The position numbers and the translations under genes were made by a program. Positions 4,528 through 9,940 of a stretch of 29,245 bases of DNA are shown here, in pieces (the first letter of the stretch is position 1; each line of letters opens with the position of its first letter). The notes beneath the pieces are model-generated. The model searched no databases and was not told the origin of the DNA. It was given only the letters and a program-made list of their open reading frames with translations. The DNA comes from a virus (Duplodnaviria; Heunggongvirae; Uroviricota; Caudoviricetes), in the IMG/VR virus record IMGVR_UViG_2778261122_000007, positions 1 through 29,245 of that record; one strand, written 5' to 3'.

Positions 4528-5034
4528 TTATTTCTTTGCAGCCAGAATCAGGCCGTCAAGCCACTCCTGGTGACCATTGAGCATTGGGTTCGGACGAGTA
4601 TTTGCCAGGTCTTTTGCTGGAACTCCGTTCTGCGTTTCCTGTGTCAGGATACGGAGTCTGTTACCCGAGAGTTCCTCCAGTAGCCACGCATGATGAACAT
4701 CTAGGCGTTGTACAGTATCTTTTTCACCGGACCATCCGTGCCATGCCAAACGAGCAGGTTTACCTTCAGTAGGTGGAATAAATTCCACGACCTGAGCTTC
4801 AACCGGAAATCCAAATGTGCTGAAGTAAAAGCGCACGCCATTTTCCAGCTCCGGACCTTTATTGTTATAAAAGCGCACATCTGCTGAATTTTTATAGTAT
4901 TCCGGCCATAGTAATGGCTGACTAAGGAGTGGCCAAACATCATTGATGTTCAGACCGGAGATGATCATTTCATTAGACACAAAGTTATCAGTAAATCCCG
5001 GAACAAAGCCTTCTGGCCAGTGAATAGCGTTCAT
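4528..5034 (-). CDS. SRPBCC (Bet v1-like / polyketide cyclase-like) family protein
   Basis: 168 aa from ATG at 5034 (GGAGG Shine-Dalgarno on the reverse strand; the track ORF starts at TTG 5046); aromatic-rich composition typical of SRPBCC ligand-binding folds; family assigned by recognition, not by search. Confidence 0.7.
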   Translation of the reverse strand: MNAIHWPEGFVPGFTDNFVSNEMIISGLNINDVWPLLSQPLLWPEYYKNSADVRFYNNKGPELENGVRFYFSTFGFPVEAQVVEFIPPTEGKPARLAWHGWSGEKDTVQRLDVHHAWLLEELSGNRLRILTQETQNGVPAKDLANTRPNPMLNGHQEWLDGLILAAKK

Positions 5035-5169
5035 AAATGCCTCCAATTGCGGTAGTTAATTGTACTGGGTTTGCTGCGTTACGACCGCAACACGATGGCA
5101 GTGATTATTAGCGCAATGAAGTTATAAGGCGAATTATGATTACTTATAATCTTAATAAGATAAATTATA

Positions 5170-6078
5170 TCAGGAGCCAGTATCTTGGCTAACTTCTACG
5201 CATAAAGCCCGAATCCACTGATGGCTAGGGTCACGATGAGTTCGTTCATGCCAGGCCATACTCTTGGTAAAGCCCGGAACTTTCAGGGGCAAAGGGAGTA
5301 TGATTAGATCGTTGTTAGTCAGGACCATGCGGTGGGGGACAACAGCGATCATATCAGTCACTTGCAATATATCAGGAACTACTTGAAAACTATTAACTGA
5401 CATGCCTACTCGTCGTGTCAGACTGAGCTTAGCCAGTGCTTCATCTGTAACACCGGAGAAGCTACCTTCTGAAGACACCAGAATATGTTCCTGTTTGCAA
5501 AATTGTTCGAGAGTCATTTCTGAATTCGCTGACAACGGATGATTCCGTCGTGCTATGCAAACATAATCTTCTTCATAAAGTGCTCTGCCGTGCAGCTCTC
5601 CGGGAGTGGTTTGTGGTGTTACCAAAGCCAGATCAACTTCTCCCTGAGATAACTGCTGATATATTCGTTTATTGTCTACAGGCCGCACAGAGATTTTAAT
5701 ATTCGGTGCTCGATGTTTCAGCGCAGCCATCAATGGGACAACAACAGCCTTAACTGCATAGTCCGTTGCGACAATGGTATAAGTTAGTTCTGCCGTCATG
5801 GGGTCAAATTTACTTGGTTTCAGCAGAATCGCGATATCGGTGAGAATTTGTTTTACCGGCATAGCAAGCTCTTTGGCACGTAGTGTGGGAACCATACCGT
5901 GACTGGTGCGAACAAAGAGAGGATCGCAAAAATAATCACGTAATCGAATAAGCATGCCACTGACAGCGGGCTGCGTCAGGGAGAGTCGCTGCGCAGCCCG
6001 AGTCACGCTTCCCTCATCCATTAACGCATCAAAGGTCTTAAGTAAGTTAAGGTCGAGGGTTTTGATATCATTTTTCAT
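5170..6078 (-). CDS. LysR-family transcriptional regulator
   Basis: 302 aa; canonical LysR N-terminal HTH (LNLLKTFDALMDEGSVTRAAQRLSLTQPAVSGMLIRLRDYF) followed by a substrate-binding domain. Confidence 0.9.
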   Translation of the reverse strand: MKNDIKTLDLNLLKTFDALMDEGSVTRAAQRLSLTQPAVSGMLIRLRDYFCDPLFVRTSHGMVPTLRAKELAMPVKQILTDIAILLKPSKFDPMTAELTYTIVATDYAVKAVVVPLMAALKHRAPNIKISVRPVDNKRIYQQLSQGEVDLALVTPQTTPGELHGRALYEEDYVCIARRNHPLSANSEMTLEQFCKQEHILVSSEGSFSGVTDEALAKLSLTRRVGMSVNSFQVVPDILQVTDMIAVVPHRMVLTNNDLIILPLPLKVPGFTKSMAWHERTHRDPSHQWIRALCVEVSQDTGS

Positions 6079-6409
6079 AATGAGGTCACCTGACAGATAT
6101 AAAAATGTTGATTGAGGCTAATTGCCCCGATGAAGGTTGTCGAGGGGAACCAGGAGTTTTTTCTTTTGGGTGATTTCCATTGCTGGATAGTTCCCTTGTA
6201 CAGATAAGTCCGTTCTTCGCACAAAGCGGACTGGAAGGTTAGCTTGAGTCGGACTTTGCGTATTAGAAGAAGTGCTGGTGGTGACTGGTTCTTGAGCCCC
6301 ATTTCCCCAGAAAAAATCAGAGAAACTATACCCAATAGTTGTATTGATTCACTGACGAGACGGCCTCATATTGATAGGGACTAGTGTGCATCCAATACAG
6401 GAGGTTGTT

Positions 6410-6499: not shown

Positions 6500-6653
6500 T
6501 TTCATATTGGCGAGGTAACGGTAGTTAAGTAGAATTGCTGCGGGTGCTTGAGGCTATCTGCCTCGGGCATGAACACCAACGGCAGATAGAGAAAAGCCCC
6601 AGTTAACATTACGCGTCCTGCAAGACGTTTAACATTAATCTGAGGCCATATCT

Positions 6654-6713
6654 ATGCGACACATAGAGATTAGCCTCTTACGGACCGAAAGGTCAAGGAG
6701 AAGCAGGCTATGA
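6654..6713 (+). CDS. mok-like leader ORF (19 codons) translationally coupled to hok
   Basis: ATG 6654 to TGA 6711-6713; the stop overlaps the hok start (ctATGa). Classic mok is longer, so this is an inference. Confidence 0.3.
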   Translation: MRHIEISLLRTERSRRSRL

Positions 6714-6865
6714 AGCAGCAAAAGGCGATGCTAATCGCCCTGATCGTCATCTGTTTAACCGTCATAGTGACGGCACTGGTAACGAGGAAAGACCTCTGCG
6801 AGGTACGAATCCGAACCGGCCAGACGGAGGTCGCTGTCTTCACAGCTTACGAACCTGAGGAGTAA
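6710..6865 (+). CDS. hok: Hok/Gef-family type I toxin (51 aa), HokD/RelF-like
   Basis: Not in the ORF track. Translation MKQQKAMLIALIVICLTVIVTALVTRKDLCEVRIRTGQTEVAVFTAYEPEE has the Hok signature (TM helix, TRK.LCE.R motif, conserved Cys); matches HokD as I recall it; structured leader upstream and terminator downstream. Confidence 0.85.
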   Translation: MKQQKAMLIALIVICLTVIVTALVTRKDLCEVRIRTGQTEVAVFTAYEPEE

Positions 6866-9630: not shown

Positions 9631-9706
9631 GGCCCTTTAGCTCAGTGGTGAGAGCGAGCGACTCATAATCGCCAGGTCGCTGGTTCAAATCCAGCAAGGG
9701 CCACCA
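9631..9706 (+). tRNA. tRNA with CAU anticodon, Ile2 (lysidine) type, ileX/ileZ-like
   Basis: Manual cloverleaf: acceptor GGCCCTT/AAGGGCC, anticodon arm GCGACTCATAATCGC, T-loop TTCAAAT, encoded CCA; very close to my recollection of E. coli ileX. Confidence 0.8.
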
Positions 9707-9707
9707 A

Positions 9708-9784
9708 CCGCCACTAGCTCATCAGGAAAGAGCGTCAACCCTTTAAGTTGAGTGTGCGAGGTTCGAGTCCCCGGTGGCGGTCCA
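9708..9784 (+). tRNA. tRNA-like gene, anticodon loop CCUUUAA (apparent anticodon UUU, Lys); non-canonical C33 and an A-C mismatch in the T-stem
   Basis: Manual fold: acceptor CCGCCAC/GTGGCGG, D-arm GCTC/GAGC, anticodon stem TCAAC/GTTGA, T-loop TTCGAGT, encoded CCA. Identity is uncertain; it could be a degenerate or specialised tRNA. Confidence 0.5.
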
Positions 9785-9786
9785 GT

Positions 9787-9862
<76 letters not shown>

Positions 9863-9865
9863 TAT

Positions 9866-9940
<75 letters not shown>

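Follow-up and report, generated by a model that had tools for sequence, protein, structure and literature searches.

A probable LysR-type operator upstream of a prophage-borne SRPBCC gene and the place of a 7-bp palindrome within it

The lysR-SRPBCC module and its gene arrangements

The DNA analysed here (the window, 29,245 nucleotides in all) is a lambdoid (Qin/Rac-like) E. coli prophage bearing ydaT-like, DUF977, hokD/sok, DUF968 and rusA genes, the gene for Q, a tRNA cluster and lysis genes. It carries a two-gene module (4528-6078) with both genes on the minus strand. The upstream gene, lysR (5170..6078, with its stop codon TGA at 5172..5170), encodes a LysR-type regulator of 302 aa with matches to the Pfam domains HTH_1 (1.2e-17) and LysR_substrate (9.1e-37), in agreement with the RefSeq annotation in E. 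coli ChlosBP-23-1 (locus L001). The downstream gene, its presumed target (4528..5034, ATG at 5034..5032), encodes a protein of 168 aa, whose designation as an SRPBCC protein or "polyketide cyclase" comes from the RefSeq annotation of a 100%-identical protein in the same strain. The window protein itself has no match in Pfam or NCBIfam; a homolog from the chromosomal group B loci described below gives weak matches to Polyketide_cyc2 and Polyketide_cyc. A Shine-Dalgarno sequence, GGAGG, can be read ahead of the SRPBCC gene at 5040..5044 on the minus strand, with GGAG conserved in the alignment. The spacer between the two genes displays no terminator-like site in a terminator scan and no RNA family match in a search against Rfam. 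Further upstream, TCGACA-N17-TAGCCT (6115..6143, minus strand) is a consensus-level match for a promoter and is likely that of lysR; it reads TAGACA-N17-TAGCCT in four aligned Pantoea and Klebsiella relatives, including the 70%-identical P. deleyi, leaving the window one base off.

The module has a G+C content of 45.5% as against 51% for the window and was found in 4 of 5,426 complete E. coli genomes, while a phage database search returned no record with the lysR-SRPBCC module. More broadly, it is widespread in Enterobacterales and also occurs in Aeromonas, Vibrio and Paraburkholderia, being rare in E. coli. The same two genes are present at ~87% DNA identity on Pantoea and Klebsiella plasmids, with unrelated flanks, and at ~70% identity in Pantoea deleyi. 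As the closest relatives (~87%) reside on large Pantoea plasmids, sequence similarity points to an import of the module from plant-associated Erwiniaceae. At its upstream edge, a stem-loop (~6206-6256; minus strand GTCCGCTTTGTGCGAAGAACGGAC, then TTATCTGT), which is kept in the Pantoea and Klebsiella copies, sits where the similarity to other E. coli prophages (from ~6208) overlaps with that to the plasmid modules (to ~6260); it is a possible terminator or junction element.

To place the spacer in a comparative framework, one genome per species was scanned, which recovered 69 loci with LysR identities of 53-90%, and the upstream DNA was extracted for every SRPBCC homolog regardless of gene arrangement. 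This provided 19 distinct tandem spacers (lysR followed by SRPBCC) and 55 distinct homologous promoters over all arrangements. SRPBCC genes are associated with this LysR clade in at least five gene arrangements across several bacterial families. In the window and the 19 tandem loci, lysR is adjacent and in the same orientation, not divergent. In the group B loci, on the chromosomes of Citrobacter, Enterobacter, Klebsiella, Kluyvera and Raoultella, SRPBCC lies between yicN (DUF1198) and nepI, with lysR divergent from yicN. Directly divergent lysR-SRPBCC pairs occur in Paraburkholderia (L060), Vibrio furnissii (L031) and on a P. agglomerans plasmid (L075), and in Rosenbergiella the order is SRPBCC followed by LysR. 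Throughout these arrangement groups, the recognition helix of the regulator, LTQPAVSxMLxRxR, is invariant, which is consistent with an operator vocabulary common to the groups.

The palindrome and the conserved region upstream of SRPBCC

On the plus strand of the spacer, TTATAAG (5122-5128) and CTTATAA (5143-5149) form a perfect 7-bp inverted repeat whose arms are separated by 14 nt, exactly as a preliminary description of this DNA had reported. That description further placed the repeat in A/T-rich surroundings, within a 135-bp gap (5035-5169) downstream of the lysR stop and upstream of the SRPBCC start. Both points hold: the gap has 35% G+C as against 51% for the whole window, and, given that both genes lie on the minus strand, the directions are correct only when read on that strand. 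Taken alone, the palindrome is no more than what chance would produce. When the gap was shuffled 5000 times with dinucleotides preserved, 15%, 19% or 25% of the shuffles contained a perfect 7-bp inverted repeat for maximum spacers of 14, 20 or 30 nt, respectively; across the whole window there are 117 such repeats (~0.5 per 123 bp), with ~10 further ones within 2.4 kb around the palindrome. Additionally, TTATAA is a self-palindromic hexamer, hence the arms can equally be viewed as a direct repeat of TTATAA at a distance of 22 bp or as an inverted repeat, with the G/C pair at 5143/5128 being the sole feature that makes the repeat specifically inverted. The arms are 21-22 bp apart from centre to centre, i.e., about two helical turns, in an element of 28 bp.

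The alignments place this repeat within a much larger conserved region. Across the 19 tandem spacers, ~75 bp, beginning at the lysR stop and ending with (A/G)ATAAT, form a block almost free of indels, with the leader beyond it being variable. Numbering from the T of the lysR stop codon as p1 (window coordinate = 5173 - p), the block comprises, in order, TGATAT(A/C)A (p1-8), a dyad (p5-18), AT (p26-27), (G/A/C)ATT (p38-41), YTTATAWC (p45-52) and, after 11 nt, a hexamer (p64-69). All 55 sequences fit this architecture, one 1-nt indel aside. The regular expression used for anchoring imposes some of the invariance (p4-6, p39-41, p46-49); unanchored MAFFT alignments display the same conserved blocks as the anchored set. 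The anchors were unmet by 5 of 60 loci (three from Rosenbergiella, L041 and L052). The architecture is shared upstream of SRPBCC by the tandem loci, chromosomal group B, the spaced locus L025, Aeromonas (L058), the divergent pairs, L076 and L077. This conservation supports the view that the spacer is a regulatory region for the SRPBCC gene.

The first two elements of the block are Box L, TGATATAA, which includes the lysR stop TGA, and the Box 1 dyad, ATAATTTATCTTAT, of the form ATAA-N6-TTAT; together they occupy 5155..5172 on the minus strand and are proposed to constitute a high-affinity regulatory site at about -65. Box 1 proper spans 5168..5155, with a predicted centre at ~-64.5, and overlaps the lysR stop codon. 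Its core is intact in 18 of the 19 tandem loci, and its half-sites are 95% complementary over the 55 sequences, a value reached in none of 1000 arm shuffles (mean 86%). The variants preserve the dyad, with ATCA/TGAT in 28 sequences, ATAA/TTAT in 18 and ATTA/TAAT in L075, such that the third half-site position co-varies as C.G, A.T and T.A, respectively; as the clades differ as blocks, this co-variation represents few independent events. The spacing also differs between groups: the tandem form is ATAA-N6-TTAT (T-N10-A), most others display ATCA-N7-TGAT (T-N11-A), and the P. agglomerans plasmid has ATTA-N7-TAAT. The Box 1 of the window is thus 1 bp short of the T-N11-A of other groups. Nevertheless, T-N10-A and T-N9-A variants are known to occur among LysR-type transcriptional regulators (LTTRs), whose dimer sites span 12-24 bp (PMC8407307), so the N6 form falls within the known range. 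In two divergent loci Box 1 overlaps the lysR start codon (L060) or abuts it (L075), which by analogy corresponds to the usual autoregulatory layout.

Downstream of Box 1, an AT-N11-AT (T-N11-A) box, ATAAGTAATCATAAT (5133..5147, minus strand), is proposed as an upstream activation sub-site centred at ~-43. Its two AT pairs (p26-27 and p39-40, the latter among the anchored positions) are invariant in 55 of 55 sequences, many relatives read ATC-N9-GAT, and the observed complementarity of 78% compares with 8-44% in slid registers. It is followed by Box R, (G/A/C)ATT-N3-YTTATAWC (5135..5121), and the second ATAA-N6-TTAT of the window, ATAATTCGCCTTATAAC (5137..5124), which jointly span 5121..5137 on the minus strand and are proposed as a proximal activation sub-site. 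This second ATAA-N6-TTAT is centred at ~-33.5, over a weak -35, and its left half is degenerate in relatives (mean 2.4/4), as would be expected of a low-symmetry activation site. Within the 29-kb window, the only two copies of ATAA-N6-TTAT are these, 31 bp apart; in shuffles, P(>=2) = 5e-5 for this pattern, which was chosen post hoc. Dyads of the T-N11-A type are therefore present in the region and conserved in relatives, in the form of Box 1 and the AT-N11-AT box; the AT-rich sequence permits several overlapping dyad readings that are not distinguishable from each other. One more such reading, CTTAT-N7-ATAAG (5159..5143), is formally a perfect T-N11-A dyad and was rejected: it is retained at 5/5 in near relatives and lost in distant tandem relatives, and its complementarity of 67% is reached by 137 of 1000 arm shuffles.

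The hexamer that ends the block, AATAAT (5104..5109, minus strand), is predicted to be the -10 element of the SRPBCC promoter and lies at a fixed 11 nt past Box R, a few sequences deviating by one base. The tandem loci have AATAAT or GATAAT at this place; group B has CATGAT, CATAGT or CACCAT. The best conserved positions of the hexamer are the second-position A and the sixth-position T (each in 48 of 55), which are the most important positions of a sigma-70 -10 element. Transcription would accordingly start ~7 nt further on, at 5095..5099 (near 5097) on the minus strand, a placement derived from the position of the -10 only, and the predicted leader of ~62 nt is poorly conserved and rich in indels. 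In this frame, in which all positions relative to +1 rest on the predicted -10 (5109..5104), Box 1 is centred at -64.5, the AT-N11-AT box at -43 and the proximal sub-site at ~-33, with the activation region extending from -50 to -24.

The TGA of Box L (TGATATAA / TGATATCA) terminates lysR in the tandem loci and the unrelated yicN in the chromosomal Enterobacteriaceae; in L028 this was verified at ~2443-2445, where YicN ends in ...HWLH*. The same first box overlaps the start of the divergent lysR in Paraburkholderia. Given that it provides the stop of two unrelated genes or overlaps a lysR start, the SRPBCC promoter cassette seems, from these sequences, to have become linked with various upstream genes at precisely this element.

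In front of its lysR gene, the window lacks the Box L-to-Box R architecture, with only a partial ATTA-N7-TGAT being found. The lysR start codon sits in this near-dyad, which is of the T-N11-A type and similar to Box 1 (6067-6081, minus strand, ATTATGAAAAATGAT). The counterpart is a perfect ATCA-N7-TGAT (ATCATGAAATCTGAT) in group B loci of Klebsiella/Raoultella and Citrobacter. Its right half is set by the conserved M-K-x-D codons (M-K-N-D in the window) and its occurrence is patchy across group B; it might function in autoregulation or be a relic of the divergent arrangement. In group B, the conserved operator is located in the yicN-SRPBCC spacer; a search of the divergent lysR-yicN spacer with a position weight matrix built from the stop-codon box produced marginal hits (p ~0.03-0.2), absent in several clades, and a LysR site there was not retained.

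A proposed operator and competing explanations

The reading we favour, as the probable one, is that the palindrome is part of a LysR-type operator of ~52 bp (5172..5121, minus strand) controlling the SRPBCC promoter through the anchoring and sliding of dimers, its arms being two of several repeated TTAT/ATAA-type contacts as opposed to a stand-alone site. In LTTRs, a dimer site covers ~13 bp across two adjacent major grooves, and the classical layout pairs a regulatory site of high symmetry near -65 with two activation sites of lower symmetry that extend to -35/-10; a "sliding dimer" moves between the latter two upon ligand binding (PMC11495319). With the predicted -10 at p64-69, Box 1 at ~-64.5 and the activation region at -50 to -24 match this layout (PMC11495319). 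Hence, one dimer of the adjacently encoded LysR would anchor on ATAATTTATCTTAT at the lysR stop (5168..5155, ~-65), and the second dimer of the tetramer would contact the lower-symmetry activation region (5147..5121, ~-50 to -24) over the weak -35. A ligand would then shift the second dimer between the overlapping sub-sites, allowing RNA polymerase to use the -10 AATAAT (5109..5104); the LysR of the module is the presumed binder and activation, not repression, the presumed outcome. The arms of the palindrome would be the outer contacts of two alternative sub-sites, about two helical turns apart and on the same face of the DNA. Specifically, the promoter-distal arm (5143..5149; minus-strand TTATAAG, predicted -52..-46) shares positions with the left half of the AT-N11-AT box, and the promoter-proximal arm (5122..5128; CTTATAA on the minus strand, predicted -31..-25) lies inside YTTATAWC, the most conserved box. 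The type of dyad, the conservation and the adjacency of the regulator gene all support assignment to the LTTR operator class; binding of LysR to the spacer is inferred from comparative genomics.

Against this stands the view that the palindrome is a chance occurrence in an AT-rich promoter, with its conserved bases serving RNA polymerase (as a -35 or UP-like element) or another AT-binding protein, e.g., a nucleoid protein, in place of LysR. The 15-25% of shuffled spacers that contain a perfect 7-bp inverted repeat and the many similar repeats nearby are what such a view predicts; further, the arm at 5122-5128 falls between the predicted -35 and -10, and the connection to LysR is inferential. 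Nevertheless, we regard it as unlikely, as it does not account for a fixed-spacing architecture that accompanies the LysR clade through at least five gene arrangements and several families, for the dyad-preserving co-variation of Box 1 and its overlap with the lysR start in divergent loci, or for the invariant recognition helix. The weakness of the predicted -35 is itself what would be expected of an activator-dependent promoter.

A different possibility is that the 7-N14-7 palindrome is itself the LysR recognition dyad, with a single symmetric protein unit reading both arms. The alignments provide some grounds for this. In the register of the preliminary description the arms are 71% complementary over the 55 distinct sequences (a mean of ~5/7), as against 26-47% in slid registers; 10 sequences form 7/7 pairs, 12 form 6/7 and 13 form 5/7, the first two sets including group B forms with other letters (TTATAAA...TTTATAA), and at the innermost pair 26 sequences have A.T and 10 have G.C. 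This register-specific pairing, together with the exchange of A.T for G.C at the innermost pair, indicates that the symmetry is probably more than a pure accident. However, most of the complementarity comes from conserved columns, as shuffling of the arms already yields a mean of 67%. Among the tandem loci, the 11 closest sequences retain 5-7 of the 7 pairs of the dyad, which scores 4-5 of 7 in L004, L017 and L020 and is down to 2-3 of 7 in five distant relatives that retain the gene pair (L013, L065, L018, L015 and L016). The two arms also behave differently. In the proximal arm, T5127, A5125 and T5124, all within the anchored positions, are present in 55 of 55 sequences and T5126 and A5123 in 52 of 55, and this arm is kept in the non-tandem loci L025, L058, L060 and L075-L077. 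In the distal arm, the A5147 and T5146 of the AT pair are invariant in 55 of 55 and the remaining five positions vary, making 5149..5143, save for that pair, the least conserved stretch of the block.

Geometry also speaks against the palindrome being a recognition dyad. Arms separated by two helical turns are too far apart for one dimer or one T-N11-A site, and the "T-N11-A type" label given to the palindrome in the preliminary description does not apply to it: at 7-N14-7 and 28 bp it exceeds both the ~13-bp dimer site (PMC11495319) and the 12-24 bp range of known sites (PMC8407307). Moreover, the self-complementary TTATAA leaves direct and inverted repeats indistinguishable, and the best-supported high-symmetry site, with greater symmetry and conservation, is a different dyad, namely Box 1 at the lysR stop codon (5168..5155). 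A literal recognition dyad is, on balance, improbable. The origin of the complementarity in conserved columns, the wide spacing, and symmetry and conservation inferior to those of Box 1 are the reasons for regarding the palindrome as a pair of outer contacts in a composite activation region; the comparison shows it, as far as alignments can convey, to be a by-product of repeated TTAT-type contacts and not a functional unit. Of the earlier proposal of a candidate LysR-type site linking the two genes, what survives is that the arms fall on conserved positions within a conserved SRPBCC control region, and what does not is the palindrome as the recognition dyad.

The operator reading also has to be weighed against an alternative origin of the transcript. 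A promoter scan picked out TAGCCA-16-TATAAT with an upstream TG, which includes a perfect extended -10 (TGnTATAAT), TGATATAAT (5164..5172, minus strand), overlapping Box 1; its conservation extends to the closest tandem relatives, and it may serve as a second promoter or as an alternative one. Were SRPBCC transcribed from it, with a start near 5157, the palindrome would fall at ~+8..+35 and act as a downstream repressor operator or roadblock. We consider this quite improbable, as the hexamer becomes TATAAG in distant tandem relatives, with loss of the critical last T, and GATATC in other groups, whereas the downstream hexamer at its fixed distance from Box R keeps A2 and T6 in 48 of 55 sequences; the scan overall found 5 sites as against 3.9 expected from shuffles.

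Lastly, although a read-through RNA would contain the dyad, lysR and SRPBCC being co-oriented with no other terminator between them, its action there as a hairpin, intrinsic terminator or attenuator is effectively refuted by an A/U stem that is not G+C-rich, a 14-nt loop without a U-tract, the lack of an Rfam match in the spacer and a folding energy of -3.1 kcal/mol (z = -0.30) that 68 of 200 shuffles equal or better.

Relationship to known LysR-type systems and wider implications

The nearest NCBIfam models to the regulator are BsrA, with 206 bits (cutoff 480), and LeuO, with 172 bits (cutoff 262); given scores so far under the equivalog cutoffs, it is neither, and both identifications were rejected. 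The likeness to BsrA (PA2121) and LeuO is one of full-length LTTR similarity. BsrA sites are T-N11-A boxes, several per promoter (PMC8407307), but the boxes found here bear no relation to its SELEX motif, NAGTAGACNNGTCTACTN. A parallel in layout is offered by the operators of BenM/CatM, CbnR, DntR and OccR (PMC11495319), with which the proposed operator shares a symmetric dyad at ~-65 (a predicted position here) and a less symmetric region extending to -35. Additional points of likeness to such classical operators are the T-N11-A/T-N10-A spacing in the sub-sites, a span of ~50 bp that would suit a tetramer, and an adjacent regulator gene, which in several relatives is divergent with the dyad over its start. 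The window and its closest relatives depart from them in having the regulator gene upstream of and co-oriented with the presumed target, its stop codon and not its promoter being overlapped by the dyad, and in their half-sites, which are TTAT/ATAA (ATCA/TGAT in other clades).

LTTR boxes of the nod-box type read ATC-N9-GAT. The boxes of group B and of the distant tandem loci literally read ATCAC-N5-GTGAT and ATC-N9-GAT and resemble them in this respect, whereas the regulator clade and target are different and the boxes of the window have drifted to ATAA-N6-TTAT and ATA-N9-AAT. Within the literature library searched, no paper connects a LysR regulator to an SRPBCC target gene like this one.

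The neighbors of the module vary between loci. The divergent pair on the P. agglomerans plasmid (L075, 2323-5098) adjoins a gene for a phenolic acid decarboxylase, that on another Pantoea plasmid (L077) a glutamine amidotransferase-like gene, and the pair on Enterobacteriaceae chromosomes the nucleoside efflux pump gene nepI. These neighborhoods, which are inconsistent between loci, hint at a small aromatic or heterocyclic ligand.

In general terms, the proposed gene switch is of an ordinary bacterial type, borne as cargo by an E. coli prophage, and it implies no new mechanism. What is unusual is the tandem orientation with the regulatory dyad over the stop codon of the regulator, and the reuse of the TGA of the box by two upstream genes. 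It is conceivable, if rather doubtful, that LysR, SRPBCC and the operator form a self-contained mobile ligand-sensing cassette for which the first box (TGATATCA / TGATATAA) has repeatedly been the junction with the upstream gene. Were this so, the box would supply the upstream stop, that of lysR in tandem loci or of yicN on Enterobacteriaceae chromosomes, or would overlap the lysR start in the divergent form. With the box as the junction in the tandem form, the regulator would bind atop the end of its own coding sequence, coupling lysR read-through to the control of the target, and the prophage cargo would provide E. coli with a small-molecule response imported from plant-associated Erwiniaceae. 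The value of the result is modest: comparative genomics alone delimits where the operator and promoter of an uncharacterised LysR-SRPBCC module probably lie, furnishing precise coordinates for footprinting, reporter mutagenesis and ligand screening.

Two further features of the prophage may be recorded. First, it contains a complete hok/sok type I toxin-antitoxin locus (6542-6865), comprising the sok RNA (6542-6712; Rfam RF01794, 101 bits) and hokD (6710-6865; Pfam HOK_GEF). Second, the tRNA cluster (9631-9940), downstream of the Q antiterminator gene, has the anticodons CAT, TTT (Lys), TGT (Thr) and TCC (Gly). The tRNA with the CAT anticodon is called tRNA-Met by ARAGORN and tRNA-Ile by the RefSeq match in E. 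coli ChlosBP-23-1, its anticodon presumably being lysidine-modified.
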